The notes beneath the pieces were generated by a model that was given only the letters and a program-made list of their open reading frames with translations, searched no databases and was not told the origin of the DNA. Position numbers and translations under genes: made by a program. From an uncultured virus (IMG/VR IMGVR_UViG_3300027973_000060) (lineage: Duplodnaviria > Heunggongvirae > Uroviricota > Caudoviricetes), in the IMG/VR virus record IMGVR_UViG_3300027973_000060: a stretch of 20,000 nt of DNA, one strand, 5' to 3'. Shown here piece by piece: positions 3,290 through 16,377 of this stretch (the stretch's first letter is position 1; each line of letters starts with the position of its first letter).

Positions 3290-6200
3290 ATGGCCGACGA
3301 AATCATCCAGGATCCATTGGAGGCAGCAAATTATTTGCTGCGCCAGTACCGCGACAATCCGAATTTTGAGTTTACGCAAGAAGAAGCGTCGCTAGTTCAT
3401 AGCGCCTACGGTGGGGGAGTTTCATTTGTAGACTCTAAGCCTGTCATGGACGAGGCGTCGACCTCGTCATTCCTAAGATCTCAAGATGAATCAGATCCTT
3501 CGTTCATAGCTAGCGAAGAAGAGTTTTCGATTCTCAAGGCTACTGAGCCTGGAGCAATCAGCAGAATTGGTGCTGGAATGACCGGGGCCGCGGAGTATCT
3601 TGGCCCTGTAATCAAAGAAGGCATCCCGGAACTAATCAAAACGGCATCGATGCGCGAGCCGAGGCCGGGCGATCCTTCACTTCCAGCTACATTGCTAGAA
3701 GCCGGGGCCAGGGGAACTGTCGACCTTGGCACAATGGCAGTCGGAGCATCTAAATTTATTGAAAAGGCTCCGTTCATGGTGGCTGGAGCGCTTGGAATGC
3801 AGGACGACTACAAGTCCTACCTAAACCAAAAGACGATCGACCAAAACTACCAGATGCAGGCGATCGACAAGATGAACGCCGAAAGAGCCCAGGGCAAAAG
3901 CATTGTCGGATTGCCGGAAGGGACGTTCGCACCAAAGGCCGCGGAGGCCGCGAGCATGGTCCTAGATCCGACGCTCGCAGTTCCATTCATTGGGCCAGGA
4001 GCGAAGGCGGCAGGAATTGCCGGAAGAGGATTAGGCGCCACAACTAAAATCGCCCGGGGGATTGAGACCGCGGCCCGGGCAACAGGCGGAGCCATTGATC
4101 TTGGAGTCGAAAAGGTTGGGCAAGGTATCCAGCGCGTTCTGCCTGGCGTAACTGCGCCAAAGACTGCAGGAGCAATCGCCACAGGAGCGGCCGCAATAGG
4201 TATCCCCGGGGCATTTCCAATTGGAGCTAAGATAGCCGGGGTTAGGGCTGGAGCAGAGGTTGTGGAGCGCGGAGCCCAGGCAGTCCGGATCGCTGGAGAA
4301 GAGGCGATGACAGGACCATCCAGGATGACCGTCATGGAGCGCGTCGCGAAGAATCAGAAGAATCCCGAGTGGCTTAGAAAGGCCGCGAACACATCGATTG
4401 TATCTTCTCCGATCACGCAAGGGGCCGCGGAGCTTGGCCTGGAGACAGGCAAGGGCGCTGTCAAATCTGCGGCCGTCGGCGCAGGGTTGGGCTATGTTGC
4501 GTCTGGAGGAGAGGAAGAGGGTATCGGTGGCGGATTGGTTATTGGGAGTGGTCTTGGCACGATTGGAGGAGCGGTCAAGGGAGTCGCAGCGATCCCAGCA
4601 AAGAAGGCGCTTGCCAAGCAGGGTGACGTCAACAGACTTTTCGCAAGGCAGGCGGATCTTGGCCTAGACGTAAACAAGATTGCCGACTATGTCCGCAAGG
4701 ACAATCGCCCATTCCTAGACGCCGCGACTCTCCAGATGATGGCGCCCGACGTCCAAGTTGAATTCCACGGTCGAGACTCGTTCATGATGCCCGAAAATGC
4801 TGGGATCAACGCGGCCGGAGTTGTCAAAGCAGTTCCAGATAAGTCAGGCACGACAAGGCTCCTAGTAAACATGGACGACATGCGGTCCTCCGGGGATACG
4901 GTTAAGCATGAGATCATGCATGCCATCATGAAGTCTCCGGCAATTAATAAGGCTGAAGGTCGGATGGCAGTCATGTCAGAATATGGTGAAGAGGGCCTGC
5001 GCAGATTTGGAAATGAGTACGCCAGGAAACTTTTGGAAGGCGAGCGCCAAGGCCGGGGCACACCGACCGAGGCCGAAATAAGGGCAAAGGCAAACGAGCT
5101 CCGAGAAGGATCTCAGCGGTCCGAGCCTGGGGCCGGGGATCTTGATTGGATAGCGGACGAGGTTCTGGCAGAACAGTTTGTGGGCGAGTTCCGCGGGAAG
5201 GATTTAGATTCTCTGCGACGCAAGACCCTCCCGGGCACAGATCTGCTCTCGCTCCAGGAAGGATTCTTAGCCCCTGTTGGCAGGCTCTTGAATAAGTTTG
5301 GGATCGACACAACCGGGCCTAAGCCGACGAATATTGATACTCTATTCAAAGACAATCCTCTTGTTCCGTCTAAACAGCTTCGAGAGTTAACCTCAAGATG
5401 GTTCCGGGACCGCGACAAGTATCTTGACGGACTAGAGAAGGCAGAAAAGCAGAAGGACGTGACGCTAGTCCCGGGGCCAGGAAACAGAAACCTGGCTAAC
5501 AATCCAGCAATCCAATTTACTCGCAACAGAAAGACAAATCTTGAGGAAAACGATTTTGCGGTAAGGTTCCCGGACGGTACTGTTCGAGCCAAAGACCCGG
5601 CATCGATTCTGGCAGTTGACAAGGCCCGGGTGGCAGACGTTGCCAAAATGTACGACCCCAACGCGGTCCTGGAGCGCGGGAGCCCTGAGTTTGGCGTCAA
5701 GATTCAGTCCGATGGCAAACCATACGTCGGTGGCAATACCCTCCCGGAGGGATTCTTTAACCTCGACAGTTTTAACGATTTCACGAAGGAAGTAGCCAAG
5801 ACCCTCCAGGACAGCCGTCAGGAGGGTAAGACATATTCTGTCTGGTACCAAAAGATCGGCACAGGCGAGGATGGGAGTTGGGCTCAGTCTGTTAAGCGCG
5901 GACTAGGCAACATTAAGGTTGGACAATCCGAGATCGCGTTCTTGGGTTGGCGCCTATCCAAGGCCGGGAACATCTTGGCTCAGGCAGTGGACATATCTGC
6001 TCTGCGCGGTCGCATGCTTGATTTTGCCAGGAGCGGAAAGGGCCGGATCAATGAAGTGTGGGGTGGAGACCTGTCGTCTTACGAGAAGGACGTCATGCAG
6101 TACCTGGACAACCATGCCAACGAAAGACCAGGCGAGACAGGGATCGGCATCGATAAGCGCAACGCGATCAACTACCTATTCGGCATCACAAACATTGCCA

Positions 6201-9200
6201 ACAAAAATGCGAATCCCATGTACGTAGCCGAAGGGCGTCCCCCGGGGAGCCTGGTCAAATCCTATCGCCTGGACCGTATTGCTAACTCTCGCGATACCGG
6301 GCGTACAGGATTCTTCTTTGACTACCAGAAGCAAGCCGCGAACTTGGCGCCTGGAGACGTGTCACTCCAGAAGGCTATTCGCGACAAGATGCCAAGACTT
6401 GCCACTCCAGAGCAAGTAAAGGCAATTATTAAGCCAGGCCAGACCCGCGGGGTAAACGAGGAGGATGTTAAGTGGTCAGGAATTAATGAAGAGATTGATA
6501 GGCTTGCAAGTGAAAACGCAGGGAAAGTACCAAGAGATAAGCTGGAAGAATTCCTGGCTGGAAAGGGCAAGGTCCAGCTTGAAGAGACAAGATACGGTTC
6601 AGCAAAAGGCTCAAAAACTGCCTTAAACGAGCAGGATATTGCAAGACTGAATGAGCTTGAGGTCGCAGATTCAGCTAATCCACTGGGAGGAATGGACGAC
6701 GAGATGGGCGATGGTGCCTACGGTGAAATGATGGACTTGCAGAATCGTCGCGACAATATTTCTACATCCAGCCAACTCACAAGGATGGCAATGGCTGCGG
6801 AAGAGGAAGCAAGGGCTTTCCTAAAGAATTCTCCAACAAATCTTGGAAAAATTGGTGAAAGCAAGGTTTACGAAACTTTTGATCGCATGATGAAAAAAGC
6901 AGAGCACTTGAACGCAAGGGCAGAGCAATTTGATAGGGCATCAGTGTCAGGGAATGCGCCAAGGTTTGGTGGGTTCACAATTCCTGGCGGGAAGAATTAC
7001 AGAGAAGTTGTGCTGTCCAGGAAACAGGACCAAGGAACAAAAAGAAAAGGTGCCTACAGAATTGAATTTAAGAACGCAAAAGATGCGGATGGTTTCCTGA
7101 CAGACATAAGCGCAGCCGGATTGGATGAACTTGATTACGGAAGAATTAGTGGCGAGGACATATCAACGAATGACAGGGTCGTTGAGTTTAACGACACGGT
7201 GACACAGGAAATTGTTGACCTTGCAAGAGCATACGACGCGAAACTTCCAAATGAGTCAATTGAAAAAGCATACATTTCAAAGCATTACCCAAAGGTTACC
7301 GACTATATCGCGCACATGCGTTTGGACGAAAGGCCCGATTCTTTTGGTAGAGATGGATTATTCATTGAAGAGATTCAAAGCGATAGGCACCAGGCGGGAA
7401 GAAAGTACGGATATAAAGAGGATGATAATCTTGTAAAATTAGAAAATGAATTCAGAAAGAAGTACGGTGATCCCATTGAATTTGACAAGTTAAGCAGAGA
7501 GGATCAAACGAGATGGTACAGGGCCGAAGGAGAGAGCAAAATAGATCCGTACAAAAGCGTCCCGGACGCACCGTTCCGGAAAGATTGGCCGATTCAAATG
7601 TTCAAAAGGGCCCTGGCCGAGGCAGTTGACTCAGGGAAGAAATGGATCGGATGGACAATTGGCGCGGAACAGCAAGAGAGATATCCTGGCATGGCAGGGA
7701 GTAGCAAGATGGGAATGGCAAAGTTTTATGACGAAATGTTGCCATCCGAGATTGGCAAGTACATGAAGCAGTATGGAGCCCCTGTAGAGAAGTCATCCAT
7801 AACAAACGACCGCTACTATGTAATAACCCAGGATGGCAGGACGTTGCCAATGGATGGCGAGAAAAGCGCAATGGAATCAAGGGCGTCTAATCCTGGGTCA
7901 AGAATTGTAGAGCCAGATCAAATCCCAATGTGGAAAATTGACATTACCCCAGAGGTTTTCGCCGGGGTTCGCAAGATGCAGGAGATGGAGAAAGAGTTTT
8001 CCGGGACCGCTAAGACTGAGCCAAAGTTTACTAGCCTAATCGGTGGCGAAGAGCAGAAACAGTTTGCTCCGGCTAGCCAAGCCGAAAAGAAAGACGAAGA
8101 GTTTTGGGTTAGCCAAAGGAATCCAAAGGCAGTTAAGGCGACAGAGAATCCGCTTACCGAGAAGCTGACGATTGGCCTAGACGTTATCCTGAAGGACAAA
8201 GAACTAGCTAAAAAACAGGCGGACCTTGTTAAGAAGTACCCTGGATTTAGCCCAAAGAGCAAGACCACCGAAGGGGTTCTCGGGGAATTCGTCGATCACG
8301 TTAAGGGCAATCTTTTGTATCTTTACGACTCATTCAAACCCGAGCTTAGGGAGCAGGCCAAGAAGTGGTACGACGGAGCCAGAAAGATTTCCGAGGAGTG
8401 GTCCGGGAAGTATGGGACCGAAACTAGGCAGAATGCAGGAGTGCTCGCTGTGCTATCCCCGCAGAAGGATTGGTTTATGAACGTGTCGCTTGCGGACAGA
8501 GTAATTGACATCAACACAAACAAATCCAAAGAGGTGTTTTCTCAGGAAATGTTTAACTGGTTAAAGTCTGACCCCAAGAGGGGCATGCTAGTAAATTCGG
8601 CGAGGAAGAATCTTCTCGGCAAGCGCTACAGCGAGGTCAAGGATTCGTTCGACAAGGCTATCTTCCTGCGCGCTTGGGACGAGGTCAACAATTCTAGATC
8701 CTTCGACGTCTATAACCCAGACGGAAAGATATTAGGCAAGAAGCTCAACGATGACGGAACCGAGGGCAAGGTTGGTTGGGGGTCATTCTCGCAGATTGAG
8801 AAGGGGATTAGTATTCTTGAGAACGGAGCCAGGGAAAACATTCACAACCAGCTTGGCGAGGAACACAAGGTCAGAAACTTCTTCAACAATATCCTCCAGC
8901 CCAATTCCAAGTTCGGAGACGTTACTATTGATACGCATGCAGTCGCGGCCGGGCTACTCCGTCCCTTGTCCGGCGGGTCTACAGAGGTGCTTCATAACCT
9001 TGGCGGAGGCCCCTCCTCTAAGATAGTTGGAGCGTCTGGCACCTACGCACTATTTGCCGAGGCTTACAGAAACGCTGCGAAAGAGCGCAAAGTACTTCCC
9101 CGGGAGATGCAGAGCATTACCTGGGAGGCAATCCGGGGCCTGTTCAAGCCAACGTTCAAGGGCCAGGCCAAAAATAAAGAATTTGTCGACAGCGTCTGGA

Positions 9201-9493
9201 AGAGCTATACTAAAGGAAGGGTAAAAATAAATGAAGCAAGAAACACAATCAGCAGATTTGCAGGAGGAATTGAAGACCCTAGCTGGGCAAGACGGAGCGG
9301 TCAGGTTCCTACTGAGGGAGGGACTGCCCCTAACGCGGGAGAACTACCTAAGCGTAGCATGGCCGGACAGGACAGCGGAGGACGAACTGGACGCGGAGTT
9401 CGAGGCGCAACTGCCAGAAATGTTCAGACTCAAAACCTCGAATCAGCAGTAAAGTCTAGGCTAATTAAAAAACAACTGGAGGCCAAAAAATGA
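3290..9493 (+). CDS. Large polyvalent internal virion protein (2067 aa): Ala/Gly-rich N-terminus, HExxH metallopeptidase-like domain, EIQSD module, C-terminal HhH-GPD glycosylase-like module
   Basis: A 6.2 kb ORF. Motifs: HEIMH at 4907-4921 with downstream DEVLAE; LFIEEIQSD at about 7358-7384; WY...LSPQKDW...KVRNF...VTIDTHA...MQSITW at about 8366-9124. Confidence 0.8.
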   Translation: MADEIIQDPLEAANYLLRQYRDNPNFEFTQEEASLVHSAYGGGVSFVDSKPVMDEASTSSFLRSQDESDPSFIASEEEFSILKATEPGAISRIGAGMTGAAEYLGPVIKEGIPELIKTASMREPRPGDPSLPATLLEAGARGTVDLGTMAVGASKFIEKAPFMVAGALGMQDDYKSYLNQKTIDQNYQMQAIDKMNAERAQGKSIVGLPEGTFAPKAAEAASMVLDPTLAVPFIGPGAKAAGIAGRGLGATTKIARGIETAARATGGAIDLGVEKVGQGIQRVLPGVTAPKTAGAIATGAAAIGIPGAFPIGAKIAGVRAGAEVVERGAQAVRIAGEEAMTGPSRMTVMERVAKNQKNPEWLRKAANTSIVSSPITQGAAELGLETGKGAVKSAAVGAGLGYVASGGEEEGIGGGLVIGSGLGTIGGAVKGVAAIPAKKALAKQGDVNRLFARQADLGLDVNKIADYVRKDNRPFLDAATLQMMAPDVQVEFHGRDSFMMPENAGINAAGVVKAVPDKSGTTRLLVNMDDMRSSGDTVKHEIMHAIMKSPAINKAEGRMAVMSEYGEEGLRRFGNEYARKLLEGERQGRGTPTEAEIRAKANELREGSQRSEPGAGDLDWIADEVLAEQFVGEFRGKDLDSLRRKTLPGTDLLSLQEGFLAPVGRLLNKFGIDTTGPKPTNIDTLFKDNPLVPSKQLRELTSRWFRDRDKYLDGLEKAEKQKDVTLVPGPGNRNLANNPAIQFTRNRKTNLEENDFAVRFPDGTVRAKDPASILAVDKARVADVAKMYDPNAVLERGSPEFGVKIQSDGKPYVGGNTLPEGFFNLDSFNDFTKEVAKTLQDSRQEGKTYSVWYQKIGTGEDGSWAQSVKRGLGNIKVGQSEIAFLGWRLSKAGNILAQAVDISALRGRMLDFARSGKGRINEVWGGDLSSYEKDVMQYLDNHANERPGETGIGIDKRNAINYLFGITNIANKNANPMYVAEGRPPGSLVKSYRLDRIANSRDTGRTGFFFDYQKQAANLAPGDVSLQKAIRDKMPRLATPEQVKAIIKPGQTRGVNEEDVKWSGINEEIDRLASENAGKVPRDKLEEFLAGKGKVQLEETRYGSAKGSKTALNEQDIARLNELEVADSANPLGGMDDEMGDGAYGEMMDLQNRRDNISTSSQLTRMAMAAEEEARAFLKNSPTNLGKIGESKVYETFDRMMKKAEHLNARAEQFDRASVSGNAPRFGGFTIPGGKNYREVVLSRKQDQGTKRKGAYRIEFKNAKDADGFLTDISAAGLDELDYGRISGEDISTNDRVVEFNDTVTQEIVDLARAYDAKLPNESIEKAYISKHYPKVTDYIAHMRLDERPDSFGRDGLFIEEIQSDRHQAGRKYGYKEDDNLVKLENEFRKKYGDPIEFDKLSREDQTRWYRAEGESKIDPYKSVPDAPFRKDWPIQMFKRALAEAVDSGKKWIGWTIGAEQQERYPGMAGSSKMGMAKFYDEMLPSEIGKYMKQYGAPVEKSSITNDRYYVITQDGRTLPMDGEKSAMESRASNPGSRIVEPDQIPMWKIDITPEVFAGVRKMQEMEKEFSGTAKTEPKFTSLIGGEEQKQFAPASQAEKKDEEFWVSQRNPKAVKATENPLTEKLTIGLDVILKDKELAKKQADLVKKYPGFSPKSKTTEGVLGEFVDHVKGNLLYLYDSFKPELREQAKKWYDGARKISEEWSGKYGTETRQNAGVLAVLSPQKDWFMNVSLADRVIDINTNKSKEVFSQEMFNWLKSDPKRGMLVNSARKNLLGKRYSEVKDSFDKAIFLRAWDEVNNSRSFDVYNPDGKILGKKLNDDGTEGKVGWGSFSQIEKGISILENGARENIHNQLGEEHKVRNFFNNILQPNSKFGDVTIDTHAVAAGLLRPLSGGSTEVLHNLGGGPSSKIVGASGTYALFAEAYRNAAKERKVLPREMQSITWEAIRGLFKPTFKGQAKNKEFVDSVWKSYTKGRVKINEARNTISRFAGGIEDPSWARRSGQVPTEGGTAPNAGELPKRSMAGQDSGGRTGRGVRGATARNVQTQNLESAVKSRLIKKQLEAKK
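9231..9452 (+). CDS. Small acidic protein nested (+1 frame) in the 3' end of the giant gene (73 aa)
   Basis: SD-like AAGGAAGG at about 9213-9220 with an A-rich spacer before ATG 9231. The translation is protein-like (VRFLLREGLPLTRENYLSVAWP...ELDAEFEAQLPEMF), while the host frame becomes low-complexity G/R/T-rich over the same interval. Confidence 0.6.
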   Translation: MKQETQSADLQEELKTLAGQDGAVRFLLREGLPLTRENYLSVAWPDRTAEDELDAEFEAQLPEMFRLKTSNQQ

Positions 9494-9495
9494 CC

Positions 9496-9768
9496 TCACT
9501 CGACGTCGGTATCTCCAAACCTGGAAATAAAACCTCCGTAGGCCCCCTTGGCGTCGACAATGCTTCCATTCCTTGTGAGGCATCCAGCGTAGTTTCCGGA
9601 GGCGTCGGAGAGACTCCTGTTCCTAAAGATGGAACCACCGTATTCCCCTGTGGATGTACTGTAGGAAGTGCGGTAGACGGAACCACCGTAGTTCCCGGTT
9701 GCATCTGTGAGATCCCCGGCGAAACAGTGACCGAGTGACAAGACGACCAACAATAGGATTTTCTTCAT
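9496..9768 (-). CDS. Small exported repeat protein (90 aa); candidate superinfection-exclusion/moron gene
   Basis: Signal peptide MKKILLLVVLSLGHCFA, then four ~16-aa repeats (D/T-x-x-G-x-Y-G/A-G). It is the only convincing minus-strand gene and has its own promoter. Confidence 0.75.
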   Translation of the reverse strand: MKKILLLVVLSLGHCFAGDLTDATGNYGGSVYRTSYSTSTGEYGGSIFRNRSLSDASGNYAGCLTRNGSIVDAKGAYGGFISRFGDTDVE

Positions 9769-10591
9769 GGCTAATACTCTAACACAGATCCCGGAACTAA
9801 GCGCAAGCAGAAATTTTACCCCATTTGGGGCCGGAGAATTCGACAGGCAAAACGCGTCCAGGCCGATGCAAGAGCCACAGAGGGCGGGGTGGACCGACGA
9901 GAAGGGTCAGCGCCTGGTCGCAATGTCTGAGCGCATGCGATCCGCGGCGACGATGGACGACATCCGGTCAGAGACAACACAAAGAGCAATGGAGGATCAA
10001 GTGACTAAAAATATTATGCAGGATCAAAACTTAATCGGGCCAAAGGTGCCCAAGAATGAATACGACTCAGCCCTGGCGACAGTTGACATGGAGGCCAGGA
10101 AGGACAAGTCCGGGAACGTAATGGTCTACAATCTCCCTTCCGGGGATATGGGCGGTAGCTACGAAGTCGCCGGGATCAACGACAAGTATCATCCAGCGGC
10201 CGCGGAGATGCTGAAGAATCTTCCAGCGGGGGAGCGCAGGGACGCAGCTGCCAGGTACGTCGTAGAATATGCCAGGCCCTTCACGTCTAAACTTCCTGAG
10301 CCTTACCGACCCTTCTTCCAGGACCTGGCATTCAACCGCGGGGTCGGAGGGGCAACGAAGTTCCTGCAACGCGCGATCGGCGTGAAGGATGACGGAGCGC
10401 TTGGGCCTCAGACGCTCAAGGCCCTGGAGGGACTGAACCCATCAGAGGTAATGAGGAACGTTTCTGTCGAGCAGATGACCTACGAGAGAAGGCTTGCGGA
10501 GCAGAACCCAGAACGTAAAAAGTTCCTCAATGGTCTCCAGAATAGAGTCTCGAACAGATATCGGCTTTTCGGGAATGCCCCAACCGGGTAA
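9767..10591 (+). CDS. GH108-like lysozyme with PG-binding C-terminus and ~100-aa N-terminal extension (start could instead be 9866 or 9923)
   Basis: E...GDMGGSYEVAGI, DLAFNRGVGGATKFLQRAIGVKDDGALGPQTL and KFLNGLQNRV match the glycosyl hydrolase 108 / PG_binding_3 pattern. Confidence 0.8.
   Translation: MANTLTQIPELSASRNFTPFGAGEFDRQNASRPMQEPQRAGWTDEKGQRLVAMSERMRSAATMDDIRSETTQRAMEDQVTKNIMQDQNLIGPKVPKNEYDSALATVDMEARKDKSGNVMVYNLPSGDMGGSYEVAGINDKYHPAAAEMLKNLPAGERRDAAARYVVEYARPFTSKLPEPYRPFFQDLAFNRGVGGATKFLQRAIGVKDDGALGPQTLKALEGLNPSEVMRNVSVEQMTYERRLAEQNPERKKFLNGLQNRVSNRYRLFGNAPTG
9769..9806 (-). promoter_or_regulatory. Putative sigma70-type promoter (extended -10) for a leaderless transcript of the 90-aa gene
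   Basis: Minus strand reads TTGCGC (9806-9801), 19 nt ending in TGn, TAGAGT (9781-9776), 7 nt, then ATG (9768). There is no SD. Confidence 0.45.
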
Positions 10592-13822: not shown

Positions 13823-13971
13823 TCTTTGTCCAGTGGGGCGAAAGGTACTACGCGGTGACTTCAAATGGAGATATTTTTGATTCTGGCGGAAAGCTAACGA
13901 TCATCCCAGAGGGGTTAAAGAAAGCAATCAAGGAGGCAGGCATTAATGAAGAGGCAAATAGTAACAGTTAG
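13819..13971 (+). CDS. Hypothetical protein (50 aa, MIFVQWGERYYAV...)
   Basis: ATGA coupling and upstream GAGAGGAAG; overlaps the start of the next gene. Confidence 0.55.
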   Translation: MIFVQWGERYYAVTSNGDIFDSGGKLTIIPEGLKKAIKEAGINEEANSNS

Positions 13972-14590
13972 TTGCCAGTTGCCGGAATGGTTTGAGAAGC
14001 ATTCCCTGCCAAGGATGGAAGAATCTTCTAAGCGTTGGGACGCTAATCTTGTGGTCATCAAGCCGGAGAACCCGATCGGACTGCTAGCCAAGATGTCGTT
14101 AGTCGACGCGGTGCAGAATTCTGACAGGACTCTGTTCGTTGACAGCGATGTATTGATTTCGCGCGAGTGTGTAAACCCATTCGAGACTTTCCCTCACGGA
14201 CACTTCTACGCTTGTGCCGACGCTCCTCACGGAGACCAGTTGCATTGGGGCCGGGCGAACGAGATGATCTTATCCCAGGCCATGCTCGGATCGGTCAAGT
14301 GGACTCAAGGCTATTTCAATACCGGGGTCATGGTTTGCGACAAGCAACATGCAGGCGCCTGGGCAAATTTCGTGTACGCACCGTTCGCTTTCCCTGAGCA
14401 GACTTTCACAAACTACCGGGCCAGAATGCTCGGTTACTCTATCCGTTTCCTAAGCTGGGAATGGAACGCGATGGAGATCAATACTCCAAAGGACAAGAAA
14501 CAGTCGGACGGATTCATGCCACACGCAGCCGGGATCTACGGAGATGCCAGGGCAAAGTGGATTGAGGAAATGGACAAGGTATTACCATGA
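13946..14590 (+). CDS. Glycosyltransferase, GT-A fold (GT8-like)
   Basis: DxD motif (FVDSDVLI), YFNTGVMV, EQTFTN, EWN and a C-terminal His (PHAAG); SD AAGGAGG. Confidence 0.8.
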   Translation: MKRQIVTVSCQLPEWFEKHSLPRMEESSKRWDANLVVIKPENPIGLLAKMSLVDAVQNSDRTLFVDSDVLISRECVNPFETFPHGHFYACADAPHGDQLHWGRANEMILSQAMLGSVKWTQGYFNTGVMVCDKQHAGAWANFVYAPFAFPEQTFTNYRARMLGYSIRFLSWEWNAMEINTPKDKKQSDGFMPHAAGIYGDARAKWIEEMDKVLP

Positions 14591-15651
14591 GAATATTGAC
14601 CCTAAAAGATCCCATGATGTTGGACGATCGGCTCCACCATCCGCACGATTCAATCGTAGTCCCGGATGAAGTCCGCGGGATACCCGGCACACATGCAGAC
14701 GCGTACACGATACCGTACAGGGTTGGTTGTGCCTCTGGAGGATATGCTTGCCTGTACCGGGGCGGGGCGATTGGAGATCAGTTCATCGCCATGGGCATTG
14801 CCAGGGCAATGCAACACTACGAGGGAGACGGAAGGATCGATGTCTACGTTCCCCAACGTCATCTTGGATTGTGGGAAGGATTTGCAGGAGTCAGGGCGCT
14901 ACCATTAGCACCCACAATCTCCACCTGGAAGTCGTACAAAGGCCACGTCTGTCTTGACGATATCTTGTCGAAGACCGCACACCTAGACGGAAACGTGTAT
15001 GACTACGTCTACAGATCCTGGGGCGTAGAGGTTGACGATCAGTTTAAGAAGCCATACGCAAAGCTGATGGAAAAGGATCAGCATGAACTTGCTACGGTTG
15101 GATTTGACGTTGCCGGACCATTCCTGCTCTATTCGATCAGTGGATCTAGCCTGTGGAAGAGCTACCCAACATACGAGGCAGGACTATTCATCAAGTCGTT
15201 CCTAAAGGAGAATAAGGATTGGCACGTTGTAGCAGTAGGCCACGACGATCCTCCCCTATCCATCACGCACAACAGGCTAATCAATCTCCAGGGAAGACTG
15301 CGCAACGTTAGGTCTCTGCTACACCTTGCGGCTCGATGCGACATGGCTGTTTGCCCAGAGTCGGCAGTGATGCACATGACCGCGGTATTCGACGCGCCAA
15401 CCGTAGGGCTGTACGGACCTTACGGACCTGAGCACACATCGAAGTACTACAAATATGTGAAGCCAATCTTCCCTAAAGATGTTTGTCCCAACGCCCCATG
15501 CTCGGTGTACGAGCAACCCAAGGACAAATGCAAAGATGCAGTCAACTCGATAAAAGGAGACCCCAAATGGTGCAACGTTCTAAGGTCAATCAAGCCAGAA
15601 GATATTCTGGCAAAGACAAAAGAAATCCAAGCAAACCTAAAGAAAATCTAA
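14587..15651 (+). CDS. Glycosyltransferase family 9-like (heptosyltransferase, GT-B fold)
   Basis: GAIGD, WKSYP, INLQGRL, ESAVMHMTAVFDAPTVGLYGP, CPNAPC and C...IKPEDI motifs; ATGA coupling. Confidence 0.85.
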   Translation: MRILTLKDPMMLDDRLHHPHDSIVVPDEVRGIPGTHADAYTIPYRVGCASGGYACLYRGGAIGDQFIAMGIARAMQHYEGDGRIDVYVPQRHLGLWEGFAGVRALPLAPTISTWKSYKGHVCLDDILSKTAHLDGNVYDYVYRSWGVEVDDQFKKPYAKLMEKDQHELATVGFDVAGPFLLYSISGSSLWKSYPTYEAGLFIKSFLKENKDWHVVAVGHDDPPLSITHNRLINLQGRLRNVRSLLHLAARCDMAVCPESAVMHMTAVFDAPTVGLYGPYGPEHTSKYYKYVKPIFPKDVCPNAPCSVYEQPKDKCKDAVNSIKGDPKWCNVLRSIKPEDILAKTKEIQANLKKI

Positions 15652-15821
15652 TCAGAATTGTTTCTGAGAAGAAAGTTGTCTGCTATGAGTTGGGCCTGGA
15701 CGTGGACAAGGACGTCTACGAGGCAATCGCCGAGGCTGGGCGCGTTCATATTGCTAACGACAAGGAAGCACTATTCCAGTACGCACTAAAGACCGCGCTC
15801 AAGGAGATGGCAAATGAATAA
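15567..15821 (+). CDS. Hypothetical protein (84 aa) starting inside the GT9-like gene
   Basis: AAGGAG SD about 7 nt before ATG 15567, in frame with the tracked ORF 15483-15821; protein-like C-terminal half. Confidence 0.6.
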   Translation: MVQRSKVNQARRYSGKDKRNPSKPKENLIRIVSEKKVVCYELGLDVDKDVYEAIAEAGRVHIANDKEALFQYALKTALKEMANE

Positions 15822-16377
15822 CTTCAAACAAAAGATTCTTACGGCAGTGTGTGAGCCGGACGTGTTGACGCAGGGCCAGTGCAATATGATCCGTGATGAT
15901 GCCGAGGTCATAGGCATGAAAAGATCTCACGTCATGAAGAAGGATGGCACGACTAGGTCTTCCTACACCAGGACATGTTCATCGTGCTGGGTACCGTTCG
16001 CGGAACACTACAAGTGGCTATACGAAGTGGTGAGGAATGTCGCTAGCGACCTAAACGAAGAGCACTACAAGTTTGACATCACTGGCATTCAGCAACTGCA
16101 GATCCTGCGCTACAGGCCGGGTCAGTTCTTCCTTCCACACTTCGACTGCTTCGACGGTAGCGACCGCAAGCTAACGATGGTGATCAACCTATCAGATCCA
16201 TCAGAGTTCCTGGGCGGAGGGCTTAGGGTTGAGTGCGACTTGCATAACGGAAAAGATGTAAAGAAGCGTGGATCGGCAACGATGTTCCCCGCCTACATCA
16301 GGCACCAAGCACTGCCAGTGTTCTTTGGCTCTAGGTGGGTGCTGGTCGCCTGGCTTACAGGAGGACAGTGGCGATGA
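15814..16377 (+). CDS. 2OG-Fe(II) oxygenase (prolyl-4-hydroxylase/PiuC-like)
   Basis: HxD (HFD), RKLTMVINLS, GGGL, distal His (IRHQ) and RWVLVAWL. Confidence 0.9.
   Translation: MNNFKQKILTAVCEPDVLTQGQCNMIRDDAEVIGMKRSHVMKKDGTTRSSYTRTCSSCWVPFAEHYKWLYEVVRNVASDLNEEHYKFDITGIQQLQILRYRPGQFFLPHFDCFDGSDRKLTMVINLSDPSEFLGGGLRVECDLHNGKDVKKRGSATMFPAYIRHQALPVFFGSRWVLVAWLTGGQWR

Follow-up and report, generated by a model that had tools for sequence, protein, structure and literature searches.

Does the 73-codon open reading frame lying out of frame inside a giant virion gene of this uncultured phage encode a protein, and if so, what would that protein do beside the enzyme-like domain that precedes it? The window analysed here (20,000 nt, part of a 34.5-kb phage record) contains a gene for a giant polyvalent virion protein of the ejection type (3290..9493, plus strand, 2067 aa; ORF list and domain scan). 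By its place in the ORF list it is the last of four virion genes and is followed by an endolysin (9767-10591, domain library matches). An earlier note, made from the letters of this DNA alone, had placed the ORF at 9231-9452 in the +1 frame, wholly within the giant gene, and these coordinates were borne out.

Comparison with relatives divides the giant gene into parts. The conserved trunk (3290..6352, plus strand, aa 1 to ~1021), which carries an HExxH motif at aa 540, is common to relatives with differing C-termini. It is followed by an exchangeable module with an IEEIQSD-type domain (6353..8059, plus strand), which is missing from one relative (L304) and replaced in others; a conserved nested gene was looked for in this module and not found. 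A short QFAPA-like junction motif (8060..8077, plus strand), which by eye recurs at the module starts of relatives, is a candidate recombination box. Next come a DUF7178 domain (8096..9289), a linker read in the host frame across the small gene (9290..9436) and a C-terminal tail (9437..9493) shared by relatives with different effector modules, all on the plus strand. DUF7178, in residues ~1603-2000, is the sole named domain that Pfam matches in the giant protein, and no MuF domain was matched by Pfam, PHROGs or NCBIfam. LPD38, RadC and ART-PolyVal adjoin DUF7178 in relatives, ART-PolyVal also in a relative with the same trunk (L303). As in polyvalent proteins, this is a very large multi-domain protein from a virion block whose relatives carry named polyvalent domains. 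Directly after the giant gene lies a pair of short ORFs (9496-9768, minus strand; 9490-9738, plus strand); the 90-aa minus-strand ORF has a signal-peptide-like start and a weak match to phrog_18536, and the segment 9490-9768 varies among relatives independently of the effector module.

The length of the nested ORF is in itself no evidence for a gene, because long open runs are common in the giant gene's +1 frame, which holds eight stop-free runs of 73 codons or more. This openness is what would be expected if the ORF were a shadow of host codon bias, and four other +1 ORFs of the giant gene that we tested were such shadows, each gaining stops in at least one of five close relatives. The nested ORF itself is open in 5/5 close relatives, ending 4 codons early in one, and the disruptive stops that the earlier note had named as refuting its reading did not appear. 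We compared selection in both frames over six close sequences, one of which is identical to the window: for the nested core, pN/pS was 0.07 in its own frame versus 6.3 in that of the host, and for the host domain upstream it was 0.14. The variable columns shift from host codon position 3 in the domain (230/353) to position 1 in the nested core (20/29). Across 90 nested loci (2673 pairs), variation at host codon positions 1/2/3 was 0.46/0.22/0.18 over the nested gene versus 0.15/0.12/0.58 in the domain. The ORF also has relatives at the protein level, including free-standing and antisense copies. We conclude that the 73-aa ORF at 9231..9452 (plus strand, ATG start) is a real gene; the selection on its frame, the codon-position shift and the free copies refute the shadow explanation, to which we leave almost no probability. 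In four RNA runs, from four studies, contigs belonging to close relatives cover the small gene. Since this stretch itself was the query that retrieved these runs, with small shares of matching words, and since their contigs give neither strand nor level, they are not counted as evidence of expression.

Which of the two frames is the newcomer is a separate matter. Over the nested core, the host frame does read as G/R/T/S-rich filler, much as had been described, and relatives show it to be an unconserved linker without stops. In free copies of the small gene, the frame equivalent to the host's contains stops (21/22 downstream copies and 10/12 orphans), so nested copies hold the host frame open under constraint. 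On a quick unrooted tree of 68 rows, nested and free states alternate, and the 'downstream' state requires 14 changes, at least 5 of them forced by well-supported branches. The simplest reading is that the host gene reads through a pre-existing small gene, using its other frame as a linker. Since the small gene also occurs free-standing and the host frame across it is an unconserved linker, its description as 'overprinted' is probably the wrong way round, the host linker being the likelier overprinted frame.

The nested gene has a Shine-Dalgarno-like sequence of its own, AAGGAAGG (9213-9220, plus strand), with a 10-nt A-rich spacer to the ATG, as previously noticed, and by eye motifs of the GGAG/GAGG type stand ahead of most homologous starts. 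A sequence scan also placed a candidate sigma70-like promoter, TTGTCG-17-TATACT (9183..9211, plus strand), among the host codons, 19 nt ahead of the nested start codon. One such site was found versus 0.5 expected, and similar sites precede the nested genes behind two other module types (B and D, described below) of the same lineage. A -10-like hexamer occurs at this fixed spot in 58/68 end-nested loci versus 171/6321 background windows, counts that are dominated by one large clade; it was seen in 8/25 mid-gene and 2/21 downstream loci, in 0/15 domains without a partner, and in 6/61 members of the wider type B family. The Leu or Val codon that supplies the TA of the hexamer ends in TA in 55/56 cases versus 494/3041 elsewhere. 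A promoter-like site at this place suggests that the small gene is expressed independently of the late giant gene. Synthesis of the small protein while the virion protein is being made, as originally proposed, is kept as one phase of its production, but not as the only one.

The product is a protein of an unnamed family, predicted to be all-helical with four helices (pLDDT 78). A phmmer search with it found 138 relatives at E <= 0.001, mostly of 55-130 aa, of which 3 are long repeat-protein noise by inspection or length. No PHROG fits any of 109 aligned family members, and Pfam gave these members no consistent match, its three unrelated single weak matches being noise; NCBIfam and PADLOC scans of the window's protein returned no family, and the ESM Atlas returned only a lead at 0.78, twice. 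A fold search of the model against 48,161 chains gave nothing above Z 2.7, with Ugi, p56 and SAUGI unmatched. The window's copy is acidic (net charge -7), but the strong acidity ascribed to it is only moderate in the family, whose median is -5 (range -15 to +2, 59 rows) and some of whose members are neutral or basic. The conserved residues (P33, T35, R36, E37, N38, Y39 and P62) form a motif and not an acidic surface. Neither the fold nor the charge supports the idea of an acidic DNA mimic like Ugi. The gene mostly follows the DUF7178 domain, as had been stated, but its first ~20 codons overlap the domain's last conserved helix, which extends to ~9289.

The domain in question had been called glycosylase-like, and its model, built with a 59-row alignment (pLDDT 97; Pfam 97.7 bits for this type A member), folds as an HhH-GPD DNA glycosylase, which assigns a fold to the previously unnamed DUF7178. 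The best structural match was 3n0u, an 8-oxoguanine glycosylase (Z 9.4, rmsd 3.8, 183 aligned residues), and the top 21 matches were all HhH-type glycosylases or related queuine-salvage enzymes (Z 9.4-4.7), so the predicted fold resembles those of Ogg2, AGOG and queuine-salvage proteins. Foldseek placed AGOG first, though weakly (E 0.22), and searching PDB sequences with a profile of the domain gave 0 matches. As Ogg, queuine-salvage and EndoIII enzymes all score similarly (Z 9.4-6.3) at ~10% identity, the fold does not fix the substrate. Lys1860 (8867-8869) and Asp1881 (8930-8932), which are K255 and D276 in the alignment, are invariant in 59/59 rows and probably form the catalytic pair; we take the spacing of this motif to match that of the HhH-GPD family. 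The domain would then be a bifunctional glycosylase/lyase, with its fold predicted by the model and its activity suggested by these residues. Elsewhere in the window, two glycosyltransferases and a 2OG-Fe(II) oxygenase are encoded at 13946-16377, and an ORF outside it (G000:C1:3306-3974) carries what we presume to be a Mom-like acetyltransferase motif. These genes may serve DNA or surface modification, with a possible bearing on self-protection from the glycosylase.

We then considered how tightly the small gene and the domain are linked. Among 80 loci retrieved with the DUF7178 domain, 77 have the +1 ORF: fully nested in 67, with the host stopping first in 7, and open to the end of the locus in 3. 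Of the three loci without a called ORF, two are cut short and the pattern failed to pick up the third. The reverse search, made with a degenerate DNA motif for the small gene, an approach that favours typical members, yielded at least 119 viral loci, 118 of them HMM-confirmed; the domain adjoins the small gene in 115 of these 118 among the matches listed, and the remaining 3 loci begin at the small gene, cut at the locus start. To survey the arrangements, we clustered at 60% identity the 195 loci that have a complete domain. The sample is biased, since many of these loci were drawn via the small gene and the same contigs turn up in more than one scan. Of the 40 resulting clusters, 10 have the partner nested mid-gene, 9 have it nested at the end and 1 is mixed; in 14 it stands free downstream, in 1 it is antisense, and in the remaining 5 no partner was detected. 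Every nested partner in the 195 loci is in the +1 frame. In the antisense arrangement (L264:1924-2103 and L269:3205-3420, minus strand), the partner is inverted and convergent on the stop of the glycosylase gene. The linkage of small gene and domain outlasts both un-nesting and strand inversion. The expectation that homologues would be linked to DUF7178 holds as a tight two-way linkage, apart from the orphans described below.

Some copies of the domain had no recognisable partner. In three of the five clusters without a detected partner, a divergent +1 ORF that starts with ATG occupies the same position. No partner was found nearby in the CRP-738 lineage (10 loci, with Lys and Asp intact), nor elsewhere in the two genomes searched. 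In the zth2-2 lineage (8 loci), the window's partner family (partner A) was not found, and a different +1 ORF follows the next domain in 3/3 loci inspected; in L257, L259 and L262 this conserved ORF, from 3877, has a strong ribosome-binding site and a PLP..HPLK-type motif and is a candidate partner family. In three viruses, cultured or enriched, that carry DUF7178 as a short gene on its own, no partner was found within 4 kb of it. The deposited phage LS06-2018-MD07 contains an unannotated, divergent nested copy (L252:10136-10378) in the middle of a gene labelled as a methyltransferase, and in prophage-like proteins of Bradyrhizobium (L209, L234) the domain is present and the nested gene lies mid-protein; a relative (L137) is fused to a prohead protease domain. 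Distances between small proteins correlate with those between domains (Spearman 0.41) at the level expected from co-inheritance alone, and the charge correlation was uninformative (p 0.10).

The C-terminal modules are swapped among otherwise near-identical proteins. We retrieved 26 relatives with the trunk, 89-100% identical and diverging after residue ~1020. The 17 complete ones carry C-termini of type A (6), B (5), C (3) or D (3), and most of them end in the same last residues despite the type of module. A conserved N-terminus with a variable C-terminal enzyme, here of four types among 17 relatives, is a feature of polymorphic toxin-immunity systems. DUF7178 scored 47.9 bits in type B and 27 bits in type D; type C had no DUF7178 match, its likeness resting on motifs seen by eye. 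Each of types B, C and D has a different +1 ORF behind the module. The nested ORF is under selection in type B (pN/pS 0.25 versus 1.05 in the host frame) and appears to be so in type D (0.19 versus 0.42, three sequences); the type C ORF was rejected as a selected gene (0.63 versus 0.22). A strict motif of the B partner was present in 42/66 distinct B loci versus 0/132 control windows. There was no cross-pairing: partner A is found in 0/80 type-B loci, and partner B in 0/195 type-A loci. A cognate, type-specific small gene is clear for A and B, weak for D and not found for C. The prediction that effector and partner would be shuffled together as modules is upheld by the swapped C-termini and by the A and B partners, which never cross.

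In types C, D and the zth2-2 group, a second unnamed domain intervenes between the glycosylase and the nested ORF, making the target of that ORF ambiguous. This ~210-aa domain (L307:5954-6586, L300:7999-8778, L257:3189-3900), which has different nested ORFs behind it, had no Pfam or PADLOC match, and a search for further loci with it found only 4 near-copies. The C-terminus of L303 has an extra domain after the type C module, with what we take to be an ASCH-like motif and with no Pfam match; its stacking there implies that modules are added in series.

Copies of the small gene also occur in cellular genomes, where 24 of 45 motif matches were HMM matches, several of them weak or broken. Five of these 24 small genes are linked to the domain and 19 are orphans, of which three by eye adjoin integrase-like ORFs, and the DUF7178 domain was found in 0/5 orphan-bearing draft genomes. 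By analogy, the orphans resemble orphan immunity genes. Orphans L207, L220, L225, L221 and L216, beside integrase-like ORFs, come from soil Acidobacteriota bins; L221 has two copies of the small gene, and the copy in L216 is frame-broken. In P0013 and P0018 the small domain is duplicated in tandem.

Taken together, we consider it probable, with some reserve, that the locus encodes a virion-delivered polymorphic glycosylase effector and its nested cognate inhibitor, moving as one in-frame cassette. The giant protein would be packaged and injected with the phage DNA, as its gene position and the biology of polyvalent proteins suggest, and its C-terminal HhH-GPD module would excise a base, most likely a guanine derivative, from the DNA of the host or of a competitor phage. 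The nested 73-aa protein would be the cognate inhibitor of this glycosylase, with a ribosome-binding site of its own and probably an internal host-type promoter. It could thus be made soon after DNA entry as well as during late synthesis, and both early and late inhibitor could protect the phage and the producer cell. The other frame of the small gene would provide a stop-free linker, which would let the pair move in-frame among positions and virion proteins, and a polyprotein gene would in this way house a polymorphic effector-immunity system.

The two-way linkage and the type specificity would equally be predicted if the small protein were a cognate accessory subunit, that is, a chaperone, a packaging adaptor, a post-entry activator or a specificity factor, and an early internal promoter suits an activator just as well. 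Orphans beside integrase-like ORFs with no domain detected make little sense for a chaperone or an activator, however, and the domain persists intact without a partner in two lineages; we regard a subunit as unlikely. A co-injected repair glycosylase, acting for example on 8-oxoG from the free virion and tuned or stopped by the small protein, would agree with the closest solved folds being 8-oxoguanine glycosylases, but Z-scores to several kinds of enzyme are close at ~10% identity, leaving the substrate unfixed by the fold. The rapid swapping of four paralogous types of module in near-identical phages further points to conflict rather than to housekeeping, and we find a repair role quite improbable. 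We give even less credence to a small gene with an unrelated role, such as a counter-defence or host-takeover peptide, that travels by physical embedding. The existence of orphans and a Spearman correlation no higher than co-inheritance alone gives would both be accommodated, but the small gene stays adjacent when it is free-standing or inverted, and partner A never stands behind type-B domains in the same phage lineage.

If the effector-inhibitor cassette is correct, the nested proteins are an inhibitor family for an HhH-type glycosylase, of which none surfaced in our literature search, and effectors could be sought by a simple rule, namely that a +1 ORF under selection occupies the linker following a domain. 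DNA glycosylases would join the candidate weapons injected by phages, and the cassette would offer a possible answer to how phages tolerate and quickly shuffle polyvalent enzymatic domains. A layer of genes dropped by ordinary annotation is exposed, such as the divergent copy left unannotated in the deposited LS06-2018-MD07. More tentatively, polyvalent virion genes at large may be arrays of effector-immunity cassettes whose 'low-complexity linkers' are alternate frames of self-promoted inhibitor genes, with one large branch delivering a varied set of HhH glycosylases to remove modified bases from the DNA of hosts or rival phages, and with bacteria or satellites collecting the inhibitors as orphans. 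A literature search that covered few subscription journals returned no description of DUF7178 or of nested partners, although the supplements of PMC5512222 may list the domain, and nothing that treats polyvalent proteins and HhH glycosylases together.

Several known systems share features with this one. In phage lambda, the spanin gene pair Rz/Rz1 likewise has a small gene lying in another frame within the gene for the protein it works with, but the products are membrane lysis proteins and not a swappable enzyme-regulator cassette. Ugi, p56 and SAUGI are likewise small acidic glycosylase inhibitors; as the available parts of the sources describe them, they block the host's uracil-DNA glycosylase, have another fold and act in trans. 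Dag1 and Dag2 (bioRxiv 10.1101/2025.10.29.685425) are HhH-superfamily glycosylases with a Lys-Asp pair that serve as weapons against DNA with modified guanine, a likeness to DUF7178 in predicted fold, in the Lys-Asp pair and in proposed use; they differ in being bacterial and free-standing, with no partner protein apparent in the available text of the preprint. Polyvalent proteins, as the available text of their description has it, are huge multi-domain proteins encoded among late virion genes and proposed to be co-injected with DNA (Iyer et al, 2017; PMC5512222). The relatives studied here carry LPD38, RadC and ART-PolyVal in the same way, but the words 'glycosylase', 'overlap' and 'linker' do not occur in the main text of that paper, and nested partners are not seen in its available passages. 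In the MuF toxins, according to the available text of Jamet et al (2017; PMC5576092), a virion protein bears a C-terminal enzyme that varies, and a small ORF read as immunity comes next in 89.4% of 191 cases, so that these toxins share with our locus both the variable enzyme and the small partner gene. They differ in that here the MuF domain is absent, the effector is a glycosylase (a word absent from the available text of PMC5576092), the partner is encoded in another frame within the gene itself, often mid-gene, and the modules are stacked.
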